DNA of 64,000 bases, taken from the NCBI GenBank assembly GCA_964016885.1, contig OZ024746.1:12524001-12588000 (forward strand). The letters run 5' to 3'. Under the pieces are notes generated by a model, which saw only the letters and a list, made by a program, of their open reading frames with translations, was not told the DNA's origin and did not search any database. Positions within the stretch are counted from its first letter, which is position 1. Each line of letters starts with the position of its first letter. This document shows, in pieces, positions 544 to 40,000 of the stretch. This DNA comes from Eledone cirrhosa (Eukaryota). Both the position numbers and the translations under genes were made by a program.

Positions 544-3500
544 TCTCTATCTCTATATATATAAAACGGTAGATGTCTGTCTGTGTGTGTGTATGATTTT
601 TATGCATTTCCACATTTCTCTACCGATTGATAATTTATTTTCCAATCTTCTTCAAATTTACAAGGGCAGGTCAACGCGTAATTATTTTTGCCAAAAATTT
701 CCTGCTTCTATGAAAAATAATCGATAAAACTAAATATATGCTGTAACCTTCTCTCTTAGACGCTTCATTCCTCTCTCTTACACGCTTCATTCCTCTCACT
801 ACTACCATCAAAAATGTATGAAACTACATACATGTTGCAACTCTCTTTAAAAGGTTCATCCTTTCCTCTACTCCACTCTCAATCTCCTCTGCAACTCTCT
901 TTAAAAGGTTCACAACTCCTTCTACTCACCCCTCAATCTCCTCTGCAACTCTCTTCAAAAGGTTACTGCCTCCGTCTACTACCCTATCACCATTACAATT
1001 TAGAACAACGACAAAACTTCTTTTGAAGGAACGCGACACAAACTTTGAAACCTAAGCAACACAACAACCATAGCTTTACTCTCTCCATCGCTCTTTCCTC
1101 TCTCTACAATAGATTATTCCCCCTCTCTATAATTTAACTGCTTTACTCTCTTCATGCTTCGAGGTTTAACACTAGCTTCACTCTCTCCGTCGCTCTTCTC
1201 TCTCTATATAATAGATAATTGCCCCTCTTCGTGCGGGAACGCGAAAAAAACTTTGATAACTAAGCAACACATCATTTTATACAACAACAAACAGTCATAA
1301 CGACACTCAATACATCAAATATCAAAATTTAAAAAGCCGATAACACTAAATACATACTGCTCTCTCAACGTTACATTTTACACACTTACATTTTACATCA
1401 AATAACAAATATTCAAAAGCAACAGATGAATTTATAAAACAACAAACGTAACAATAACAATGCTTAAGCATTTATGATTCTCAACAAAGACATTATATTT
1501 TATTGTTGTCCTTTTTGTAATATTCTTTCTTTGTTTTTCTCAATATGAGACAAAAAATTAATGAGAAAACTTTTTTCACGGGATTCTATTCAAAGTCAGG
1601 ACAATTATTGCCTTTGGTCAGAAGGTGACGAAATAAAAAAATTTCAAATCAATCAACAATAATGGCAAAAATCGATCATGATCATTCCCCCTCTCTATAA
1701 TTTAACTGCTTTACTCTCTCTGTCGCTCTTCACTCCCTATATGACAACACTGAAGAGAGAGAAACAATGTATATAATCAAATGGAGTGTTCCGTATATTC
1801 CCCTTCTCTATAATTTAACTGCTTTACTCTCTCTGTCGCTCTTCACTCCCTATATGACAACACTGCAATGGAGCGTCCCGTATTGAGCATTCCGTATTGA
1901 CATACAGCTTATCTGGGGCATTTTCAATCGGCCTATTGCAAATAACAACCCGCAAAATAACACTTCATATAACAGATTAATGCTATAGACATATGAATCG
2001 GAATGTAACCTGTGAACTTTTTCCTGGGCAAAATTATTCGAACAGACATGACCTCATCGCCAGAGTGTTCAGACTGAAACTGACTAAACTCATGGCTTTA
2101 ATCAAAAAGGTCAGGTATTTGGGGCTGTAAAATGTGACATGTTCGCCGTCGAATGGCAAAAACGAGGGCTGTCACATGCTCACATTTTGATTTGGTTCAG
2201 CTAATAAAATCAATTCAAATGCCATAGACAGCTTCATTTCGGCTGAAATAAATAACCCAGCAACTGACCAGGAATTACATGACATCGTCAAAGCTAACAT
2301 GGTCCGTGTGCATAGGGTCCTAATGAGCATCACACGTGTCTGAAGGGGGGGGGCGGTCGTGCAGTAAGGAGACCCACAAAAATGTGTTGACCAGACTCAG
2401 ACTGGTGGCGACGGGTACCCCCTATACAGGCGGAGACGGCCCGAGAACGGTGGCTTCACAACAACAGTAAGGGGAGGTCAAGTCGACAATAGATGGGTGG
2501 TCCCTTACTGCCCGCTTCTCTTGAAGATGTTCAACGCCCACATCAACTTTGAGTTTTACATTTCCGTCAAGTCAATAAAATACATATGCAAATATGTAAA
2601 TAAGGGCTCTGATGCCGCAATGTTCGCATTTCAAGCTGAAAATAGCAGGGACGAGGTCACAGAATACCTGGTGGAGCGGTACATCAGTAGCAATGAAGCT
2701 TTTTGGCGCCTATTTGGTTTACCCCTACACCAACGTCACCCCGCCATCGTACAGCTTGCGGTACATTTGGAAAATGGGCAAAGGGTTTACTTTACGGACC
2801 AAACCGCCGCCAACTTGGCCGCCGATCCGAAAGAGACCACTCTTACGGGTTTCTTCAAACTTTGCCAGTTCGATACATTTGCACAAACAATTGTGTACTC
2901 CCAGGTTCCATCCTACTTTATATGGTCGAAAAACACTTGGGGGCGAAGAAAGTCAAGTCAGGCTGTTGAAAGACATCCTGGTGTAAAATTTTACAGCTGT
3001 CTTGGAAGGGTTTACACTGTGCCCCCAAGTCAGCATGAGTGCTTTCATCTCCGCCTTCTTCTGCATGAAGTTGTAGGCCCACAAAGTTTTCAGGACCTCA
3101 AAACTGTTGATGGAGAAATGTGTGATACGTACCGGGAAGCCTGCTTTAAGCGTGGTCTTTTGGAAGATGATTCGCAATGGGATTCCACTTTAGCAGAGAG
3201 TGCTTTGTTGAAATCACCTAAAGGTCTACGGGAACTCTATCATTTTGCTTCAAAAGTGTGAATTGGGTGATCCCAAATCTTTATGGGTCAAGTACAGAGA
3301 CTTCATGTCTGAGGACTTCCTGCACCTGGTTCATCTGCAGTATACTTCAGTGGAAGTTGGTTACAGCGACATTATCTACAACAGGGCACTCATTGATATC
3401 GAGGACACCCTCCTCGACATGGGTGGGAGTTAGTTGGTGACGTATGGCTTGCCGTCAACCGTCAGAAAGGAAGCTAACACGTTGGCCCCGGATTTGTTGG

Positions 3501-5220
3501 GGGAAACAGCATATTATATCGAATCTCTTTCCCAATACTTAGAGGAAAATGAGCCCAAACTTCTGTCGGACCAAAGGTTAGCCTATTTAACTATCATTGA
3601 CGCAGTTCAAAATCAGACTGGGGGTATTTACATTCTCGATGCTCCTGGGGGTACCGGAAAAACTTATGTAACGAAATTGATTCTCGCTAAGATTCTCCAG
3701 GAGAAAAAAAATTGCGTTGGCCGTTGCATCGTCCGGGATCGCTGCTACTTTGCTGCCGGGAGGCAGGACAGCACATTCAACCTTTAAACTCCCCTTGGAT
3801 TTAGAAAAAACTGAGTCACCAACATGCAATATCAGCAAGAGTTCACACGAAGCTCTGGTTTTCAAAAAATGTTGCCTCATTGTTTGGGATGAGTGTACAA
3901 TGGGTGCCCTTGAGGCATTGGACAGGACCCTGAAAGACATTAGGGATTCTACGGCTCCTATGGGTGGCGTAACCCTTCTGCTATCAGGGCTTTTTCGGCA
4001 AACGCTGCCTGTCATCCCCAAAGGGACAAGAGCTGATGAAGTGCGTGCCTGTCTTAAGTCGTCCATGTTGTGGCTCCAGGTGAAGAGTTTGTACCTGAGC
4101 ACAAATATGCGTGCTCATTTGCATGGTGACAACATGTCTGCAGCATTTGCTCAGAATATTTTAGCACTTGGTGAGGGCAAGGTCCCTGCGGATAACAAGG
4201 GCGGCATAGCAATCGACTCCCTGTGCAACATTGTAAGCAGCCCATCTGACCTTTGGGAAGCAGTTTTTCTTAATGTCTCATCTAACTTTAAAAACCTCGA
4301 TTGGCCTAGCGAAAGAGCCATCCTTGCTCCGAAAAATACCATGGTTAATTTTATTAACGAACAGCTGATTGAGAAGTTTCCCGGTAAAGAGCCATCTTCA
4401 AATCTATCGACCGGACGTCAGACCCCGATGACATCGTTAATTATCCGGTTGAGTTATTAAATTCCCTTGAGCCCCTAGGGCTCCCACCTCACATTCTTAA
4501 GCTTAAGGTTGGCTGTCCCATTATGCTAATAAGGAACTTGCGTCCACCAAAGCAGTGCAACGGTACTCGCATGGTCGTCAAGTCACTGGCGCCCCACTTG
4601 ATTGAGGCCACCATTGTAACGGGGTGCGGGAGAGGGGAGAATGTTTTCATTCCAAGGATGAACCTTTTCCCCTCGGCATCAGATATCCCGTTCGATTTCT
4701 GGCGATCCCAATTCCCGGTGAGACCATGTTTTGCCATGTCCATTAACAAGTCACAAGGGCAAACATTGTCGGTGGCGGGCATCCATTTGGGGAGCCATGC
4801 TTCTCCCATGGCCAACTTTATGTTGCCTGTTCCCGCGTAGGGAGCAGGAATGGACTTTTTGCTTACACTCCTCAAGGGATGACATGCAATATCGTCTACA
4901 AAGAGGTGCTATAGATGTTGGTGCAGGTGTTGGAGCTATGCCGTCTGGAAAACTGGTAGGGTCACCCATAGCGGACAGATCTGACACCCAGCGGCATCAG
5001 GGCCACCATCTTGCAACTTTGGTCTACTAAATTCGCTATTAGAAGATTATTAACCCATCATTGATTGTCCAAAATGCTAATTGGTTCGTAACTTTTAATA
5101 ACCGGTTCAACTGCTTTATTCACTTAATTGATAAGCTTATGCGCTTTCAAGCTACGTTTACCTGTATGTAACTTTTCATAGCAAATGAACAAACCCGAGC
5201 AACGCCGGGCTAAACTGCTA

Positions 5221-24172: not shown

Positions 24173-27100
24173 CTACAGGCTGATATAGAGAGAAGGCCCA
24201 TTCACTCGGGCCATTCTCGCCACTTTCACCCACCTTTCATAAAACTTGCTGGGGTACAGCACCTCTCTCTCCATCCTGATTCTTCTTCCAAAGTGGTATT
24301 TGAAAAAAAGAATCAGTTGTTGGCCGGAGAGAAAGGTGTCTGACCTCAGCCCTTTCAACCTTGTCCACCATACAACCTCTTTCGCCATAGCTATCACACA
24401 AAGGAAAACCGCCTCTCCTTCGTTTTTGAAGGAGGGTGGCGGTTTGATCATGACAATGGACTCGGTGGTCAACTGGATTGGTCCCACCCGCGACAATAGT
24501 CGTTCCACATAGCCCCACAGGTCAGTGACGCCCGGGCAGTGTATGAATGCGTGCGCGACGGTTTCTTCGTCTCGCACGCACCTCGGACAGATCTTTTTTG
24601 CAGGGTCCCTGCCCGGGCGCCCATGTCTGTAGAGCTTGTCTCGAACTGGTAGAGCTCCTCGGTAGCACTGCCAGGCCAGGGACTTTTGGAAGTTGTCCAT
24701 CGGTCCCGGGCGGAAGGTCCTACCGAACAGACTGGCCAGTTCATCTTCCTCCACGCCTAGAGTTTCACCGAGCGCGTCGTCGCACTTGCTGCGGACCAAC
24801 CCTCTATAGAATGACGAAGTGGAGTCTCCACTGATCGCCGGGTCCGCCTGCCAGAGGGCTGTGAGCGCCTGAGCACATTCGATGTGCCAGTCGCCCATTT
24901 TCCTCGGTCTCTGCTTGACCCAGGACTGCAGCTCGGTCAGCGAGACGAGTCGTGGGAAGGCTCGCCTCACGAACGGGGCCCACACCGGTTGTCCGGTGAG
25001 GAATACGTAGAGATGCCGCAGCCTGAGCGCGTGTTTGCGCATCGTCAACCACGGCATCCCCAGCCCTCCGTTAGAAGGGTGTTGGCAGCAGATGGATCTT
25101 CTTACCAAAGGAGCCCGCCTCTTCCAAAGGAATTGGAAGAGGGCGCGCTCCATTTTGGCGAGCGTTTTGGCTGGACAAGGCACGACGGTCAAGCGGTAGT
25201 AGATGGCGGACGCTATAAAAGTGTTCGCCACCTCCGCTCGACCTTTCAAGGATAGTTTGCACTCGGCCCACTTCTGGGTGAGTGCAAACACCTTGGCCGT
25301 CACTTCGTTCCAGTTCTTCTCCACCTGGAGGTCCGGACCAAACCAGACCCCGAGCAGCTTTACCGGTCCTTCCGTCCAGCGTCCGACGACGCCATCGGAA
25401 GGCATCGGTCTGCCTCTCCACGATCCGAGTTGCAAACCGATGGACTTGTCCCGGTTCAGCTTCGCTCCTGTGAGACTTTCGTATTCCTTTAGTAAGGTGC
25501 CGACTTCCTCGATTTGCGAGGCGCTCGACACCATTACTGTCACGTCGTCGGCGTAGGCCGACGCCGCTTTCCGCAGTCCCGGTTCCAGAGGGATGCCCTG
25601 CAATAGCTCCAGCTTCCGCAGTAGTGGCTCGAGAGTCAGTACGTACAGAAGGGAGGAGAGAGGGCATCCCTGTCGAATGGATCGCGTAATATGGAACGGC
25701 TCCGAGAGGTAACCGTTCACCTTGACCCTTGAGCAGATGTTGCTGTTGTGCATTGCAGCAATCCAGCCCCTGAACACGGGTCCGAAGCCTGCCGCCTCGA
25801 GCACCGCATCCAGGTAACGATGGTCAACCCTATCGAAAGCCTTAGACTGATCCAAGTTGATCAGGGCCCCACCGAAGCCGGGTTTACACCCTACCCTCTC
25901 TATGATGTATCGCATGAGGTGGAGGTTGTCGTGTATGGACCTGGTCGGGATCGCGCATGTCTGCGCTTCTCCCACCAGGTTCTCGACGACAAGCGCCAGC
26001 CTCTTTGCCAACACCTTGGCCAAAATCTGTAACTCTGTGTTTAGCAGAGTTATGGGCCGGAAGTTGCCTATGTCATCCCCCTTATTCTCGTCCTTCCTGA
26101 TTAGTGTGACCACGCCCCCGGTTACAGAATTGGGAATTCTCCCGTTCTGTTGCCAGTTGCAGTAGACCGCTTCCAGGAGACCGGAGAATAAGTCCGGCAT
26201 TGCTACGTAAAATTCGTAGGGTAGACCGTCGAGACCTGGAGATTTGCGTTTGCCGCATTGGCTCAGCGCGTCCCCTATCTCAGTGGCTGAAATCGGCTTT
26301 TCGCAGAACTTCGCCTCGCTGTCCGAGAGTCGCGGTAGGCCGTCGAGGTATGGACCGAAATCCATAGCCTCTCCCGGCGCGCCGCTCCCCCCGAACAGCC
26401 GAGCAAAGTGCCGCTGAAAAGCCGCACACATCTGCTTCGGCTCACGTATCACGCGTCCGTTTTGGTCCTTCAAAGACCGAATCGTGGACTTGTTGCCACT
26501 TTTTGCCTCCGTCACTCGGGCCCAGCTAACAGCTTTGGCTCCCTCGTTTCCCAGAGCACGTATTTTGCTTCTGACAACGCAGCCCTCGTGCTTTGCGTCG
26601 AAGAACTGGTCCAAGGCCGTTCTCGTTGCTAGCACGCTGGCTACGTTGCCACTTCTAATAGCCTCTTCTACTTTATCTACCAGTTCCTTCTCGGTTCTAT
26701 TTCTATCTAACGCTAATTCTTTACTAAAAACTATCGAGTCTAATCTAACTGCCCTCTTGAGAGAGTACCACCATCTGTTGTTGACAATGGCCCCTGTCAA
26801 GTGCTGTTTAACTAAAGTGCTAATCCGTCTACTGTAGGCTTTGCTTGTCGGTAACGACAAGTTCAGCTTCCAGTAGCCGGGTCCTTGTCTATGGGTTCTA
26901 TCAAGGTTGGCCATGCAGGTCACTAGTTTGTGATCTGAATAGGCAACCATGAACATTTGTGGACAGCTTAACATGTCCCTATCCTTATTTCTAACTAGAA
27001 CCCTATCTAGGTACGATCTAGATGTTCCGCTACGATTACTCCACGTCCACAGTGGCGCAGTCGGAAAATCTAGTCGATATCTATCGGCCAGGTCAAATCG

Positions 27101-27610
27101 GTCGATTAACTGTTTGAGGCTGTTACACCCCCCTTTATCGGGACATGCTCCCACATAGTCCCAACGTGCATCTAGGATTCCATTCCAGTCCCCCACTAAA
27201 AGCAAGGAGCGGGACGTTCCCAGAAAAGTCTCTAGACGTTTGAAGAAGTCTGGCCGCGGTGTCCCGGATGGGGCATATGCGGCCACCAGCCTGAACGCTC
27301 CACCTTCACTACCGTCAACGTCTAGGACCACCAGTCGACCCTCCGGGTCCAGATGTACCGTCTGTGTTACGAGGCCCAGGTGTTTCCGCAGCAAAACGGC
27401 AACTCCGCCCCCACCCCCCGGTTGACAGAGAGATGCGTAGATCTCAAAGTCATCGAAGATGGGGGCCAGCTGTCGCTCGCCGTGGATCCTGGACTCGCAA
27501 ATGGCTACCACATCCAAACTGTGCGACCTGAGGTCGTTTAAGAGTTTGCCCTGTTTCCAGGGCATCCCCAGGCCGCGTACGTTCACACATCCAACTCTTA
27601 TATTGGCCAT
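24173..27610 (-). CDS. LINE ORF2: apurinic-like endonuclease + reverse transcriptase + C-terminal CCHC zinc finger (1145 aa)
   Basis: VNVRGL, ICES, GDWN, YLDRVL, SDH (APE); KSPGLDGL, FRPITLLN, DQSKAFDRV, RQGCPLS, AYADD (RT); CPRC..ETVAHAFIHC. Confidence 0.96.
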   Translation of the reverse strand: MANIRVGCVNVRGLGMPWKQGKLLNDLRSHSLDVVAICESRIHGERQLAPIFDDFEIYASLCQPGGGGGVAVLLRKHLGLVTQTVHLDPEGRLVVLDVDGSEGGAFRLVAAYAPSGTPRPDFFKRLETFLGTSRSLLLVGDWNGILDARWDYVGACPDKGGCNSLKQLIDRFDLADRYRLDFPTAPLWTWSNRSGTSRSYLDRVLVRNKDRDMLSCPQMFMVAYSDHKLVTCMANLDRTHRQGPGYWKLNLSLPTSKAYSRRISTLVKQHLTGAIVNNRWWYSLKRAVRLDSIVFSKELALDRNRTEKELVDKVEEAIRSGNVASVLATRTALDQFFDAKHEGCVVRSKIRALGNEGAKAVSWARVTEAKSGNKSTIRSLKDQNGRVIREPKQMCAAFQRHFARLFGGSGAPGEAMDFGPYLDGLPRLSDSEAKFCEKPISATEIGDALSQCGKRKSPGLDGLPYEFYVAMPDLFSGLLEAVYCNWQQNGRIPNSVTGGVVTLIRKDENKGDDIGNFRPITLLNTELQILAKVLAKRLALVVENLVGEAQTCAIPTRSIHDNLHLMRYIIERVGCKPGFGGALINLDQSKAFDRVDHRYLDAVLEAAGFGPVFRGWIAAMHNSNICSRVKVNGYLSEPFHITRSIRQGCPLSSLLYVLTLEPLLRKLELLQGIPLEPGLRKAASAYADDVTVMVSSASQIEEVGTLLKEYESLTGAKLNRDKSIGLQLGSWRGRPMPSDGVVGRWTEGPVKLLGVWFGPDLQVEKNWNEVTAKVFALTQKWAECKLSLKGRAEVANTFIASAIYYRLTVVPCPAKTLAKMERALFQFLWKRRAPLVRRSICCQHPSNGGLGMPWLTMRKHALRLRHLYVFLTGQPVWAPFVRRAFPRLVSLTELQSWVKQRPRKMGDWHIECAQALTALWQADPAISGDSTSSFYRGLVRSKCDDALGETLGVEEDELASLFGRTFRPGPMDNFQKSLAWQCYRGALPVRDKLYRHGRPGRDPAKKICPRCVRDEETVAHAFIHCPGVTDLWGYVERLLSRVGPIQLTTESIVMIKPPPSFKNEGEAVFLCVIAMAKEVVWWTRLKGLRSDTFLSGQQLILFFKYHFGRRIRMEREVLYPSKFYERWVKVARMARVNGPSLYISL

Positions 27611-27643
27611 GTTGGTGCTGAAAAGTTAAAAGAGGAAAAGAGA

Positions 27644-29560
27644 TCACTCACCCTTCGCCTCCTGGGGACCAGGCCGCACGATTTCCATGGGGGTGTTGGA
27701 GGGGTTGTCTGGATGGGTGGTGGTTTCCGGCGGGGTGGGGACGCAGATGTTTGGTGGGGTGGGGTCTGGTGGAATGGGGGTGTCTGGGGTGGGGAGGCAT
27801 TTGAGAAGGACGCGGTTGAGTGGTTTCACGCAGGAATTCCCCACATCCTTCTCAAATGTTTCTTTTAGGGACCTATAAGTTTGTATAGGGACCCTAATCA
27901 GTTTTAGGTTCATTTTTTTGCTATTTTTTATAGAGTGGGCGAAAGTTTTCCCTTCGGTGAAAACCGAAGGGTCGTTCGTAATGGTCTCCATTAGTGTTTT
28001 GTTTTCAGTGTTTATGTAAGTGTAAGTGTAATTTTCTTGTGTTGTGTTTGTTTTTGTCTGTAGTTCTTGTGTGTGCTTTCGTTTTGTTGTAGGTATTTTG
28101 TTTTCAGGAGGTGGGGGTTTTGTTTGTGATATTTTTGTTGTTTGTGTTGGTGGTTGTATGTTTGTGGTAGTGTTTGCTGGTTTTTTGCTTTTGTGATGTC
28201 TTTTCTTTCTTTTCGAGCGATGGGGTTCTCCCTCGTCTTCACTGGGTGATGGCGAGATAGCCTCATCTGTTGTATCGTCTGTGTGATTGGGGAGGGGTAT
28301 GTCTTGGGGAGCTGTTGTGTCTGTATGTGATTTTGCAGTGGTTTTAGGTGGAGTGAGGTTGGGTGGGACTGTGTTTGTTGTGGTTATTTTTGTGTGTTGG
28401 TGTTGTTGTTGTAGTGGTGGTGTTGGTGGTTGTGTTGTTTTGATGGGTGTTGGCAGAAGAGCCTTTTTTTGGTTCATTAGTTTAGGACAGGAAGCCCTCA
28501 GGTGACCCCTGCTAAAGCAATGGTAACATGAAGGCCGCCTACCCTCAACCGAAAGGTTTATGTAGGTAAGTCCGTCCAGGAGTACACGCTGTGGGATCAT
28601 AGCTATTCGCTCTGGGCTCATTTGCACCAGAACTTCAATGCTAGTCCCATTGAATACATCTCTGGGGGACTTGCCTACTGACAGTATTCTGTCTTCATCA
28701 AAATTGATGAAGCCGCACAGTATCCACCATATGTTCACCTTTGGTGTGACACTTGTGATTCTGATCTTTTGTGTCCTTTTTCCCATGTATGTAGGGAAAA
28801 AGGTGTACAGGTTGGATACAATTGGCGACACAGAGTAATTTTGGGCCGTCAATTGATCCTTCATCAGTACCGAAATACTCCCAAAAAGTTTGCTTCTTTG
28901 AATGAATGCAATATCATTCATTGAATCTTTGAAAACCAGTTCAATATCTTTCTGTGACAATTGGACTGGTTTTCGGGTAGAATTGGAAACTGTCCTAAAA
29001 ACTATCGTTTTGAGAGCAGTTTCCTTGCGAATTTCTACCGGAGAATTGATGCTGAAAGCACCATTTTTTTCGAAGGTGACATATCTCTTAGCGTCCTTTA
29101 AAAGGTGTTCAGCATTTGTTATGTCGAGATATATCAATTGTTCTTTCTTTTGAACTTTCTCCGCAAAGGAGATTTTTGGTTTCTTTGTGGAATCCGTATT
29201 GGTGGTGTTGTCATTATTGTTGTTATTCTTGTTGTTATTCTTGTTGTCACCGATGTTGGTATCATCCGTATTTTCCTTGGTGTTGTTGTTGTCTTTGATG
29301 CTGGTGTTATTGGCGTTGTCTTTATTTTTTTCTTTGTTGTTGTTATCATTGTTGCTTTTATCATCATTATTGGTTTTGCTGTTATTTTTGTTGTCATTGA
29401 GCTGTTTGGTGTCATTTGTGTTGTTTGGATGTGAATTCGTTTTTTTATTTTCATTTTGTCTTTCCATCTCTATAGTATCTAGTGAAGAAGACGTTGTTGA
29501 CTGCGAGCTTTGTAGTCTTACCGCCTCTCCACCACCATTATCGTTGGACGCAGCGTTCAT
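27644..29560 (-). CDS. LINE ORF1 (638 aa), gag-like with one CCHC zinc knuckle
   Basis: CYHCFSRGHLRASC knuckle; lies 33 bp upstream of ORF2 on the same strand; N/K/D/T-rich N-terminus and P/T-rich C-terminus. Confidence 0.88.
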   Translation of the reverse strand: MNAASNDNGGGEAVRLQSSQSTTSSSLDTIEMERQNENKKTNSHPNNTNDTKQLNDNKNNSKTNNDDKSNNDNNNKEKNKDNANNTSIKDNNNTKENTDDTNIGDNKNNNKNNNNNDNTTNTDSTKKPKISFAEKVQKKEQLIYLDITNAEHLLKDAKRYVTFEKNGAFSINSPVEIRKETALKTIVFRTVSNSTRKPVQLSQKDIELVFKDSMNDIAFIQRSKLFGSISVLMKDQLTAQNYSVSPIVSNLYTFFPTYMGKRTQKIRITSVTPKVNIWWILCGFINFDEDRILSVGKSPRDVFNGTSIEVLVQMSPERIAMIPQRVLLDGLTYINLSVEGRRPSCYHCFSRGHLRASCPKLMNQKKALLPTPIKTTQPPTPPLQQQHQHTKITTTNTVPPNLTPPKTTAKSHTDTTAPQDIPLPNHTDDTTDEAISPSPSEDEGEPHRSKRKKRHHKSKKPANTTTNIQPPTQTTKISQTKPPPPENKIPTTKRKHTQELQTKTNTTQENYTYTYINTENKTLMETITNDPSVFTEGKTFAHSIKNSKKMNLKLIRVPIQTYRSLKETFEKDVGNSCVKPLNRVLLKCLPTPDTPIPPDPTPPNICVPTPPETTTHPDNPSNTPMEIVRPGPQEAKGE

Positions 29561-29799
29561 AACGTAATCAAAATTTTACAATATTTTTTTCCAAGATTCG
29601 ATGGAGAAAAATTTTTTAAATGGATATTCCGCCCCTGAAGGGGCGAAAATGAGTTGACCCACCACCTGAAGGTCCAGACGGGTGGTCAAGTTACACAATG
29701 ATATAAAATTGAACTAAAAACTTACGTTTTTTCCTTACATAAATTAACGGAAACTTCTCCGCGAAGTGACACACGACTGATAGAGAGAGAGATAGAAGG

Positions 29800-34875: not shown

Positions 34876-34913
<38 letters not shown>

Positions 34914-34916
34914 TGA

Positions 34917-35966
34917 TAATAATGGAGCTGCGGCGCTGCAAATGGGTTACATATGAAAAAGTTTGTCCTCATCAGTGGCCATCCAACCGTCGTAGGCATT
35001 TCGTCGCATTAGAGGCCATATACCCCAGGTTGGTGCGAGCAACGGCTAAAAAAAAGTCGTTGGGACACGTAAATAAGGGGGACGCTAGGGTAAACGAACA
35101 AAATGGTTTAAGCAGCAGAAAGTAATGAAGAAGGAAACAAGTCCCAGATTTCTATGAATATAAATTCGGTGAAATGGTGAACGAGAGAATAAAGACCATC
35201 AAACCTGGTTGAAATGTGAGCAAGGAAGTAATTTCGCACAGGTCTAACGGGAGGAAGAAGGGGTCTGGTCTGCGAATTCGGTAAACATAAGTTCTGTGAA
35301 GTCGCAGACGAGAGAGAGAGAGAGAAAAAAAATTCATACCGGCTTGGCCAAGTGCCCGCGAGAAAAGGAATACGGGCAGGTCAAACGGGAAGAAAGGGGA
35401 GGAGGAGAGGTAGTGACAGAGAGTGAGTGAATGAAAGGTGAGGAAGAGGCTAACAGAGAGAGAGACTGCTAGAAAGGGTAAAGACACAAAGAACGAAACG
35501 GACTGGTGGCAGCAGAGGAAAATTATATGTGTAAATATAATAATGGAGCTGCGGCGCTGCAAATGGGTTACATATGAAAAAGTTTGTCCTCATCAGTGGC
35601 CATCCAACCGTCTGTGACTTCACAGAACTTATGTTTACCGAATTCGCAGACCAGACCCCTTCTTCCTCCCGTTAGACCTGTGCGAAATTCCTTCCTTGCT
35701 CACATTTCAACCAGGTTTGATGGTCTTTATTCTCTCGTTCACGATTTCACTGAATTTATATTCATAGAAATCTGGGACTTGTTTCCTTCTTCATTACTTT
35801 CTGCTGCTTAAACCATTTTGTTCGTTTACCCTAGCGTCCCCCTTATTTACGTGTCCCAACGACTTTTTTTAGCCGTTGCTCGCACAAACCTGAGGTATAT
35901 GGCCTCTAATGCGACGAAATGCCTACGACGGTTGGATGGCCACTGATGAGGACAAACTTTTTCATA
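34917..35966. mobile_element. Non-coding PLE-like element with partial-tandem plus inverted structure
   Basis: 34917-34990 is directly repeated at 35538-35611; 35612-35965 is the reverse complement of ~34951-35305; (TA)n on both sides; related diverged copy at 36250-36420. Confidence 0.65.
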
Positions 35967-36155: not shown

Positions 36156-36221
<66 letters not shown>

Positions 36222-36431
36222 GAGAAGAAAGAATACTGCGTGGTTTGCACATGGGTTACATATGATAAAAATAGTCCTTCGTCAGTGATTTTCTAACCAT
36301 CATTGGTATTTCATCGCATTAAAAATCAGATACCTCAGGTTGGTGCGAGCAATAATCTAAAAAAAGTTATTGGGACCAGTAATCGCGTAAAGCGAGGGGG
36401 ACAAGTGAACAACATAGAAGGATAAAAACAA

Positions 36432-36562
<131 letters not shown>

Positions 36563-36599: not shown

Positions 36600-37080
36600 C
36601 GATAATTTTTTAAGCCGGTACTATGCGGCAAATGATGACAAATGAAACAAAACAGTCCTATATGGTGACCTCAATCTCTTGGTTGTGTCATCTGTCAAGT
36701 TGTTTCTTTTTAATGGAAGAGATTCTCATTGTTACGTGCTCTTTGATCCGTATGTGTAGCCGCCTTATGGTACTTCTGATGTATGAGGAGTTGCATATTT
36801 TGCATGTGATCTTATAGACCACATATGTTCTCGTGCGCACTTCTGCGTTGTTGACGCGATCTCTTTATTGAGGGTCCCAAGTGTACCAGACGTATATTTG
36901 GTCCCTCCCTACGAATAGTTTTTCTGATGGCAGCTGCCGTCGTCTCATTGAAGTTTAGCAGCTTTAGGTAACTTATGTTATCTGTAGAAGCGCGTGTCCT
37001 CCTTGTTCTTTTAAGTGTTGCCGTCTCGGCATTTCATTGTTTGGAGGAAAGTAGAGTTGCCGTTTTCGGTGAGAAGTCTT
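36600..37080 (-). pseudogene. Penelope-like GIY-YIG endonuclease/thumb fragment
   Basis: Minus strand reads VVYKITCKICNSSYIRSTIRRLHIRIKEH (~36735-36825) and RLLTENGN (LxxNGY-like) at ~37055-37080. Confidence 0.75.
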
Positions 37081-40000
37081 TAGAATTCTACCGTGCTGGT
37101 ATGTCTGTCCCTACCTTCACTGCATCTATTGCAGGTACATGAGAAGTCTTTAGAATTCTACCGTGCTGGTATGTCTGTCGCTTCCTTCACTGCATCTATT
37201 GCAGGTACATGAGAAGTCTTTAGAATTCTACCGTGCTGGTATGTCTGTCGCTTCCTTCACTGCATCTATTGCAGGTACATGAGAAGTCTTTAGAATTCTA
37301 CCGTGCTGGTATGTCTGTCCCTACCCTCACTGCATCTATTGCAGGTACATGAGAAGTCTTTAGAATTCTACCGTGCTGGTATGTCTGTCGCTTCCTTCAC
37401 TGCATCTATTGCAGGTACATGAGAAGTCTTTAGAATTCTACCGTGCTGGTATGTCTGTCGCTTCCTTCACTGCATCTATTGCAGGTACATGAGAAGTCTT
37501 TAGAATTCTACCGTGCTGATATGTCTGTCGCTTCCTTCACTGCATCTATTGCAGGTACATGAGAAGTCTTTAGAATTCTACCGTGCTGGTATGTCTGTCC
37601 CTACCTTCACTGCATCTATTGCAGGTACATGAGAAGTCTTTAGAATTCTACCGTGCTGGTATGTCTGTCCCTACCTTCACTGCATCTATTGCAGGTACAT
37701 GAGAAGTCTTTAGAATTCTACCGTGCTGGTATGTCTGTCCCTACCTTCACTGCATCTATTGCAGGTACATGAGAAGTCTTTAGAATTCTACCGTGCTGGT
37801 ATGTCTGTCCCTACCCTCACTGCATCTATTGCAGGTACATGAGAAGTCTTTAGAATTCTACCGTGCTGGTATGTCTGTCGCTTCCTTCACTGCATCTATT
37901 GCAGGTACATGAGAAGTCTTTAGAATTCTACCGTGCTGGTATGTCTGTCGCTTCCTTCACTGCATCTATTGTAGGTACATGAGAAGTCTTTAGAATTCTA
38001 CCGTGCTGGTATGTCTGTCGCTTCCTTCACTGCATCTATTGCAGGTACATGAGAAGTCTTTAGAATTCTACCGTGCTGGTATGTCTGTCCCTACCTTCAC
38101 TGCATCTATTGCAGGTACATGAGAAGTCTTTAGAATTCTACCGTGCTGGTATGTCTGTCCCTACCCTCACTGCATCTATTGCAGGTACATGAGAAGTCTT
38201 TAGAATTCTACCGTGCTGGTATGTCTGTCCCTACCTTCACTGCATCTATTGCAGGTACATGAGAAGTCTTTAGAATTCTACCGTGCTGGTATGTCTGTCC
38301 CTACCCTCACTGCATCTATTGCAGGTACATGAGAAGTCTTTAGAATTCTACCGTGCTGGTATGTCTGTCGCTTCCTTCACTGCATCTATTGCAGGTACAT
38401 GAGAAGTCTTTAGAATTCTACCGTGCTGGTATGTCTGTCCCTACCTTCACTGCATCTATTGCAGGTACATGAGAAGTCTTTAGAATTCTACCGTGCTGGT
38501 ATGTCTGTCCCTACCTTCACTGCATCTATTGCAGGTACATGAGAAGTCTTTAGAATTCTACCGTGCTGGTATGTCTGTCCCTACCTTCACTGCATCTATT
38601 GCAGGTACATGAGAAGTCTTTAGAATTCTACCGTGCTGGTATGTCTGTCCCTACCTTCACTGCATCTATTGCAGGTACATGAGAAGTCTTTAGAATTCTA
38701 CCGTGCTGGTATGTCTGTCCCTACCCTCACTGCATCTATTGCAGGTACATGAGAAGTCTTTAGAATTCTACCGTGCTGGTATGTCTGTCGCTTCCTTCAC
38801 TGCATCTATTGCAGGTACATGAGAAGTCTTTAGAATTCTACCGTGCTGGTATGTCTGTCGCTTCCTTCACTGCATCTATTGCAGGTACATGAGAAGTCTT
38901 TAGAATTCTACCGTGCTGGTATGTCTGTCCCTACCTTCACTGCATCTATTGCAGGTACATGAGAAGTCTTTAGAATTCTACCGTGCTGGTATGTCTGTCC
39001 CTACCTTCACTGCATCTATTGCAGGTACATGAGAAGTCTTTAGAATTCTACCGTGCTGGTATGTCTGTCCCTACCCTCACTGCATCTATTGCAGGTACAT
39101 GAGAAGTCTTTAGAATTCTACCGTGCTGGTATGTCTGTCGCTTCCTTCACTGCATCTATTGCAGGTACATGAGAAGTCTTTAGAATTCTACCGTGCTGGT
39201 ATGTCTGTCGCTTCCTTCACTGCATCTATTGCAGGTACATGAGAAGTCTTTAGAATTCTACCGTGCTGGTATGTCTGTCCCTACCTTCACTGCATCTATT
39301 GCAGGTACATGAGAAGTCTTTAGAATTCTACCGTGCTGGTATGTCTGTCCCTACCTTCACTGCATCTATTGCAGGTACATGAGAAGTCTTTAGAATTCTA
39401 CCGTGCTGGTATGTCTGTCCCTACCTTCACTGCATCTATTGCAGGTACATGAGAAGTCTTTAGAATTCTACCGTGCTGGTATGTCTGTCCCTACCTTCAC
39501 TGCATCTATTGCAGGTACATGAGAAGTCTTTAGAATTCTACCGTGCTGGTATGTCTGTCCCTACCTTCACTGCATCTATTGCAGGTACATGAGAAGTCTT
39601 TAGAATTCTACCGTGCTGGTATGTCTGTCCCTACCCTCACTGCATCTATTGCAGGTACATGAGAAGTCTTTAGAATTCTACCGTGCTGGTATGTCTGTCG
39701 CTTCCTTCACTGCATCTATTGCAGGTACATGAGAAGTCTTTAGAATTCTACCGTGCTGGTATGTCTGTCCCTACCCTCACTGCATCTATTGCAGGTACAT
39801 GAGAAGTCTTTAGAATTCTACCGTGCTGGTATGTCTGTCGCTTCCTTCACTGCATCTATTGCAGGTACATGAGAAGTCTTTAGAATTCTACCGTGCTGGT
39901 ATGTCTGTCCCTACCCTCACTGCATCTATTGCAGGTACATGAGAAGTCTTTAGAATTCTACCGTGCTGGTATGTCTGTCGCTTCCTTCACTGCATCTATT

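Follow-up and report, generated by a model that had tools for sequence, protein, structure and literature searches.

The motif and its four copies in the window

The window, that is, the whole stretch of 64,000 nucleotides analysed here, holds four copies of an RNA motif built around the core letters of the hammerhead ribozyme. Copy A, a candidate ribozyme whose full structure is read from the sequence and a covariance model, occupies about 35852 to 35954 of the plus strand. In the block notation of Eckert et al. (2023), who define the blocks S, G and C and the type-SGC hammerheads (PMC10085705), its block S (35894–35904) consists of a stem III strand, the triplet AUA and a stem I strand; block G (35916–35923) consists of GAAA (35916–35919) and the second stem III strand; and block C (35938–35949) consists of the second stem I strand and CUGAUGA (35943–35949). 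Stem III thus pairs 35894–35897 with 35920–35923, and stem I pairs 35900–35904 with 35938–35942. By analogy, cleavage is predicted after position 35899.

The 5' leader takes part in the predicted structure. In the alignment, the 5' strand of a first leader helix (Pa, 35852–35856) pairs with 35950–35954, directly after CUGAUGA; a leader hairpin follows (35857–35878), which is missing from the old subfamily N; and the 5' strand of a second leader helix (Pb, 35880–35884) finds its partner at 35910–35914, just before C-GAAA and in the position of stem II. Positions 35885–35893 carry the 5' strand of a further helix, NC, together with the UGA (3n, 2n, 1n) of a predicted k-turn, and the opposite strand (35924–35935) is made up of a 3-nt bulge, GA, C and the 3' strand of NC. 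The limits of 35885 to 35955 given in the preliminary description are therefore too narrow, since they leave out the leader hairpin and two further leader helices. An alternative pairing of copy A, between 35869–35878 (the 3' strand of the leader hairpin) and 35925–35935 (k-turn and NC), is the minimum-energy fold; in this folding model, it is possible that the alternative acts as an off state.

The other three candidates are the inverted twin of A (34958–35072, minus strand), in which an A of the k-turn is mutated to G; copy B (36267–36382, minus strand); and copy C (60805–60916, plus strand). The strings quoted in the preliminary description were found in their places at all four loci when the window sequence was re-read, and a covariance model made from genome copies matched exactly these four loci in 64 kb, a recovery that is partly by construction because the model was built from families of the window copies. 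The AAAA that replaces GAAA in copy C is present as described, but it is a private mutation and not a trait of the family, as GAAA is found in 26 of 28 distinct rows of family C. Bare CUGANGA is weakly enriched in the window (45 occurrences versus 29 +/- 5). No Rfam family matched the motif, and the hammerhead was absent from local scans and among the 150 listed of the 177 whole-window matches.

Elements that carry the motif in the window

The four copies lie in non-coding repeats that end in or between TA tracts. A family-A element (34912–35612, minus strand) comprises a full unit of ~624 nt and part of an upstream unit, and ends ~119 nt past the predicted cut in (TA)n; a fifth CUGAUGA (35590–35596, minus strand) belongs to this 5'-truncated upstream unit. 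It is joined by an inverted, 5'-truncated family-A copy (35609–35965, plus strand) that ends ~71 nt past the predicted cut, also in (TA)n. The 5'-truncated elements of family B (36215–36432, minus strand) and family C (60718–60957, plus strand) each lie between TA tracts. Across families, the units are non-coding, occur in head-to-tail tandems and as inverted 5'-truncated copies, and are flanked by (TA)n; they measure ~624 nt (A), 500–535 nt (B/E), 568 nt (C), 470 nt (D) and 670 nt (A3). As non-coding tandem repeats with a ribozyme candidate in each unit, the window elements are of the retrozyme type. Animal non-LTR retrozymes are known to give cut and circularised RNA (Cervera and de la Pena 2020, PMC7229834).

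At 58 pattern-selected loci of family A, two sites, ~71 and ~119 nt past the predicted cut, account for 74 of 79 3' ends, and in families B and E most ends lie 63–70 nt after CUGANGA. Every insertion retains an intact ribozyme site, and 17 of 74 segments extend past a second one. The 5' ends show no significant excess at the cut in the pattern-selected set (11 of 74 within the 60 nt after it, 10 within the 61 nt before it; P=0.10), and among 5' junctions at the predicted cut one is exact and two are compatible. An apparent 5' pile-up in a BLAST-selected set (12 of 46) fell to these 11 of 74 under pattern selection and gives no support. Two sequencing runs made up of contigs cover the unit as well, but contigs do not show RNA ends or expression and are not counted as evidence.

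A protein-coding carrier for the window units was also sought. A PLE fragment just upstream of copy C was rejected, as a TA tract lies between them, the fragment has its own type-I hammerhead, and the window locus is the only one of 30 C loci that shows its ORF. Retrozyme units A, C and D had no sequence in common with the autonomous candidates at E<0.01. In this genome, PLEs with a C-terminal endonuclease and type-I hammerheads likewise target TA.

Several other repeats lie nearby. The rejected PLE (59400–60700, plus strand) is 5'-truncated, carries an inverted copy of its own 3' end and has TA flanks; by eye it is Hydra- or Neptune-like, and its relatives are 88–92% identical genome-wide. 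Its C-terminal ORF (59842–60447) is GIY-YIG-like, with no Pfam match, and a minimal type-I hammerhead with a palindromic loop lies at 60629–60669. At two loci elsewhere (L013 and L119), another PLE family has a GIY-YIG domain, a type-I hammerhead in its 3' repeat and retrozymes at its TA tail. The window further holds a satellite array of ~137 copies of a 70-nt unit, 97–99% identical (36930–46700); a tandem array of a 310-nt unit (52613–56421) that switches orientation near 55460 and has CUGANGA in each unit, a repeat that recurs at another locus (L081) and is unmatched by the covariance model; two long open frames of 643 and 1150 aa (24176–29575, minus strand) that by eye form an apparently intact L1/Tx1-like LINE; and fragments that by eye resemble a Helitron Rep-helicase (2368–4457, plus strand).

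Occurrence in the genome and in other sequence collections

In the 3.0-Gb assembly, a spaced core pattern had 10,503 exact matches (5,134 + 5,369) versus 61 (45 + 16) for the reversed control. An exact 34-nt stretch of family A matched 435 times and a pattern for the older family N 82 times, each versus 0 in the control. Counts so far above the reversed control mean that the motif is not due to chance. A pattern for other stem III variants gave 73 matches versus 47 in the control, mostly mutated members of known families. In DNA searches, the best 40 of ~1,800–2,400 candidates were 97–99% identical to copy A, 98–99% to copy B and 90–96% to copy C.

Metagenomes were scanned with a pattern in which only the letters of core, k-turn and linkers were specified and no pairing was required. 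Of its 66 matches, five had nine of nine scored pairs of stems I and III and the other 61 had at most six. The same five were the only strong covariance-model matches (40–50 and 34 bits); two of them are near-identical and three come from one assembly series. They keep Pb and NC, each of 6 bp, with new sequence, and Pa is clear in three of the four parsed. None of 21 pattern matches in prokaryote genomes had the fold (none had more than six pairs), nor did any of the 6 and 1 pattern matches in viral contigs.

Three of the five metagenome copies directly follow the end of an ORF. Full-length relatives of this ORF have an RT domain and, among solved structures, are closest to R2. Homologues occur in fishes, lancelets and bivalves; viral contigs yielded no protein related to the RLE protein. 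The octopod genome itself has 69 matches to the RT-RLE element, and the motif stands directly after the ORF, in the 3' UTR, at 17 of 30 loci at E<0.001 and more weakly at 5 more, in two families. The likeness to the R2 superfamily and the host range are observed; from the host range and the C-terminal motif, these RLE LINEs presumably belong to the HERO clade. This clade is named in PMC4640811. The HERO-like family is rare in this genome. Family 1 has a Pa of 11–12 bp, 13 exact pattern copies and a head-to-tail partial tandem; about half of 11 copies have TA-rich 3' flanks, and the single full-length unit examined is broken. A short tandem of the HERO-type module without an ORF also occurs beside a TA tract (L423 / L417; G000:C9:34894471-34894528, minus strand); this may be the 3' end of the LINE turning into a retrozyme. 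The earlier suggestion of TA-targeting, PLE-like carriers thus holds for TA insertion and for tandem and inverted copies, but not as a restriction to PLE-like elements, since HERO-like LINEs carry the motif too.

Naiads are PLEs that Craig et al. (2021) describe as lacking a canonical hammerhead and targeting (TA)n, with only 'HHR_core' or 'HHR_half_core' marked in their sequences (PMC8557442). We read the last 300–400 nt of 53 published consensus sequences by eye (PMC8557442), and the SGC order with a leader-supplied Pb appears in eight of the 53 3' ends: Naiad_Bfor, Naiad-3_Chem, Amil, Aacu, Anas, Naiad-2_Movir, Obim and Ovul. By the same reading, the Esco Naiad has a decayed version and the Ptep Naiad an SGC form with a different stem II; the k-turn is clear only in the two octopus Naiads, in which the leader hairpin loop and stem III are similar to those of families D, F and N here. 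In the octopod genome, a protein search found 14 Naiad-like remnants, which are old, and the motif was absent in both of the two with a traceable 3' end. Motif copies at Naiad remnant loci (13 + 2 loci) turned out to be separate retrozyme insertions. A Naiad peptide-motif pattern had 10 matches versus 20 in the control, and two looked Naiad-like. Other Naiads have at their 3' ends what we take to be a twister-like motif (Naiad-1_Movir and several bivalve Naiads) or an HDV-like motif (oysters, hemichordates and two Clytia families), and those of two spiders presumably contain type-II-like hammerheads. The 3' ends of the nematode Naiads 1-3_Nbra, Hcon, Hpol and Asuum show, by eye, candidates for type CSG (supplement of PMC8557442), a type represented in Eckert et al. 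(2023) by only two similar metagenome sequences (PMC10085705).

Pairing and covariation

Genome-wide copies were gathered and modelled, as the preliminary description had proposed. Each of 18 subfamilies is represented in the main alignment by one natural copy, chosen from sequence clusters; the single decayed copies of family N were mostly excluded, and one was retained. Seven helices were counted (Pa, the leader hairpin, Pb, NC, stem III, stem I and the 10.1-11.1 pair). In these copies, 92.2% of 630 cells are paired, and 24 of 35 pairs, spread over all seven helices, have changed on both sides. None of 500 shuffles reached the observed pairing, and slid controls were 30–44% paired. The significance of these counts is overstated, because the structure was derived from the same sequences and the rows are related; the counts carry no tree correction. 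The covariation of helices I and III that had been reported is real: stem I is paired in 94% and stem III in 98% of cells, and two-sided change affects five of six and four of five pairs, respectively. The NC helix is 95% paired, with covariation in five of six pairs. RNAalifold, which cannot represent pseudoknots, returns Pa, the leader hairpin, NC and stem III on its own. Family N, without the leader hairpin, keeps Pa and Pb. The core is conserved (CUGANGA in 18/18, GAAA in 17/18, U16.1-A15.1 in 18/18; triplets AUA, AUC and GUA), partly by construction, as the collection patterns contain the core.

A wider alignment of 13 rows includes HERO-like and metagenome copies, with 44–65% identity between groups. 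Here 96.2% of 286 core cells are paired, 18 of 22 pairs have changed on both sides, and the covariation score is 0.855 versus at most 0.16 in slid controls. Anchor-based parsing succeeded for 15 of 19 copies, the four others being decayed (H, N and two of HERO family 2).

These data bear on the reading that repeat history, such as local duplications and hairpins in one transposon family, produced the pairing as a by-product with no RNA function. The rows of the subfamily alignment are indeed related, and single-sequence folds are unremarkable: they return different structures, whose z-scores are weak (-0.4 to -1.5), and this also makes misfolding plausible. But the pseudoknotted helices covary across groups that are only 44–65% alike, and the metagenome scan, blind to pairing, gave a clean two-class result. 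The by-product reading is largely refuted, and we give it hardly any credence.

Proposed replacement of stem II and a predicted k-turn

In a canonical hammerhead, stem II pairs the bases that follow CUGANGA with those that precede GAAA. Here this stem is limited to 0 or 1 bp in all 18 copies, in agreement with the caveat raised earlier, and even the 10.1-11.1 pair fails in 4 of the 18. It has 0 bp in HERO family 1 and 0–2 bp in the metagenome copies. The deficit is compensated by leader pairing, with Pb and Pa standing in place of the canonical helix. We know of no tested hammerhead in which the stem-II partner comes from a separate strand.

The extension of helix III beyond the core, which had also been noted, exists and has 6 bp in most copies (the NC helix), but it is not continuous with stem III: between the two lies a loop in which a 3-nt bulge precedes a GA that faces GA on the other strand. 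Its letters agree closely with a k-turn (GA on the bulged strand in 18/18, A1n in 18/18, G2n in 17/18), and 3b.3n is U.U in 11 and C.U in 4 of the 18 copies. The standard k-turn signature is a 3-nt bulge and tandem G.A/A.G pairs, flanked by the C and NC helices (PMC4382518). From these letters, the loop capping stem III is predicted to kink as a k-turn. The linkers are fixed in length, with ~1 nt between Pb and NC, 1 nt between NC and stem I, and 3–4 nt, mostly UAA, between stem I and Pb. A kink would set NC beside the tips of stem I and Pb, which are adjacent in the hammerhead fold, so that one molecule can close the structure.

It had been argued that the strand order needs a pseudoknot or a dimer. 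Stems I and III are pseudoknotted, as that argument foresaw, but the k-turn probably relieves the strained geometry of the monomer and a dimer is not needed. A hammerhead active only in trans, or as a dimer of neighbouring units with intermolecular or inter-unit long-range helices, would suit units that occur in tandems, and minimal type-I hammerheads of PLEs show no activity on their own and weak activity as dimers (PMC4209133); covariation, moreover, is blind to cis versus trans pairing. Against such a requirement, stem III is here a full helix of 4–5 bp with no palindromic loop, the fixed 1-nt and 3–4-nt linkers and the k-turn letters fit a single molecule, and published type-SGC RNAs cleave as single transcripts of ~80 nt (PMC10085705). 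We consider an obligate trans or dimer mode quite improbable, and favour the single-molecule fold.

Proposed mechanism and significance

Taken together, we think it likely, with good confidence, that the motif is a covarying RNA with a hammerhead core in S-G-C order, located at the 3' end of TA-inserted tandem units, likely self-cleaving and serving to process retrotransposon RNA. In the proposed structure, stems I and III are canonical, and the 5' leader would pair after CUGANGA through Pa and before GAAA through Pb, its two strands being separated in most cases by a hairpin. The predicted k-turn would fold the continuation of stem III back, with the 1-nt and 3–4-nt linkers reaching the tips of stem I and Pb, and a closed single-molecule cage would result. 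Read-through transcripts of tandem units would be cut to unit length, and the unit-length RNA would probably be ligated into circles by a host ligase, as in other animal retrozymes (PMC7229834). The RT of an autonomous element might then start at a TA lying 70 or 120 nt beyond an intact or re-ligated ribozyme and integrate the copy into (TA)n. Both the intact site in every insertion and the 17 of 74 segments that run past a second site are consistent with a template that is circular or not fully cut. In autonomous Naiad PLEs and HERO-like LINEs, the module would free the 5' end of the next tandem unit.

The motif could also be a weak or dead hammerhead derivative, kept as a 3' recognition element for a retrotransposon protein or as a host k-turn-protein site. 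Its place 40–120 nt from the 3' end, where the RT starts, would suit this, as would the uncut site in every inserted copy, the missing stem II and the lack of 5' ends enriched at the cut. What speaks against it is that CUGANGA, GAAA, U16.1-A15.1 and a non-G at position 17 are kept while the stems of retrozymes, HERO-like LINEs and metagenome copies differ completely, that unrelated RTs carry the motif, and that other Naiads, by eye, have ribozymes of different classes in the corresponding position, an argument that selection favours cutting itself. We regard the recognition element as unlikely and retain self-cleavage as the preferred reading.

On a broader proposal our judgement is evenly balanced: that the motif is a four-strand hammerhead outside the three-block scheme of Eckert et al., in which the leader replaces stem II and a k-turn makes folding dependent on the host protein 15.5K/Snu13; that it is the missing ribozyme of many Naiads and is also present in HERO-like LINEs, whose enzymology is unrelated; and that non-circularly permuted types, SGC as well as the CSG of nematode Naiads, are common in animal genomes. 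The observations matter in several respects. Non-circularly permuted ribozymes were known before from anonymous environmental sequences only, and here there are more than 10,000 copies of a candidate in an animal genome, in a defined biological setting. They offer a testable answer to the apparent lack of hammerheads in Naiad PLEs, and they add a candidate ribozyme to the 3' UTR of a LINE from the R2 superfamily, in which we found no earlier report of one. They also break the assumption that CUGANGA and its stem-II partner form one block; because the two are separate here, descriptor searches miss the motif. A natural k-turn in a hammerhead, if real, would point to a ribozyme that may be gated by protein, and would give engineers a compact scaffold.

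Comparison with known systems

The non-circularly permuted order UH > GAAA > CUGANGA of the preliminary description is confirmed, but its novelty is not: the order is that of type SGC, so a match to an already described motif, a point marked there for checking, exists for the block order (PMC10085705). The orders CGS, GSC and SCG of types I–III do not apply, the order being SGC, with no Rfam hammerhead match. What is new here is the architecture (split stem II and predicted k-turn) and the setting. The split stem II, the k-turn, the genomic abundance and the association with Naiads and HERO-like LINEs were not found in the literature searched, which was short of most subscription papers and Repbase Reports; passages of PMC13725137, PMC6765202, PMC4209133, PMC4640811 and PMC7650587 contain no split stem II, k-turn or genomic motif of this kind, and the literature searched held no report of a HERO ribozyme.

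With the published type-SGC hammerheads (HRIMA-1 and SGC variants), the motif shares the block order, the core letters, the pseudoknotted stems I and III and a short linker of ~3 nt from stem I to the stem-II position (PMC10085705). The published RNAs self-cleave at 0.007–0.13 per min as single, monomer-length transcripts of ~80 nt; in them, block C pairs with block G (descriptor G-C plus 2–6 bp) and stems I and II are linked by a further helix (PMC10085705). Here, in contrast, stem II has 0–1 bp, the 5' leader gives both partners, and a k-turn-type loop sits on stem III; the words 'kink' and 'k-turn' have 0 occurrences in the supplement text of that paper (PMC10085705). The type-SGC descriptor, as re-coded here without a positive control, matched 0 of 18 copies in strict or relaxed form, so the motif is a new SGC-order variant and not HRIMA-1. 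The settings differ as well: the 583 published sequences are all metatranscriptomic, and a search of RefSeq in that study gave no instance in the genome of a known organism (PMC10085705), whereas the copies here are genomic and lie inside retroelements.

The Kt-7, box C/D and U4 k-turns (PMC4382518) have in common with the loop described here the 3-nt bulge, the tandem G.A and A.G pairs and the C and NC helices. Unlike a standard k-turn, the loop of HERO family 1 is non-standard, and the coral and ctenophore Naiads lack a k-turn by eye.

The window elements share with animal retrozymes (PMC7229834; Li et al. 2026, bioRxiv 10.64898/2026.07.22.740005) the tandem non-coding units, one hammerhead per unit, the thousands of copies and the link to PLEs. 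Those retrozymes have type-I hammerheads and measure mostly 150–450 nt (PMC7229834; bioRxiv 10.64898/2026.07.22.740005), whereas the present ones are of SGC and not of type I, measure 470–670 nt, and are strictly TA-inserted, with inverted truncated copies. With Naiads they have in common the (TA)n targeting and the tandem and inverted insertions (PMC8557442), and in the octopus, coral, hydrozoan, cubozoan and ctenophore consensus sequences the fold lies, by eye, ~70 nt from the 3' end (PMC8557442); unlike Naiads, the window elements encode no protein.

The HERO-like LINEs, finally, share with HERO-clade non-LTR retrotransposons an ORF with RT and restriction-like endonuclease related to R2, and some of these target microsatellites. 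R2 itself has a ribozyme that is HDV-like and lies at the 5' end, whereas the motif of the HERO-like LINEs is of the hammerhead type and lies in the 3' UTR.
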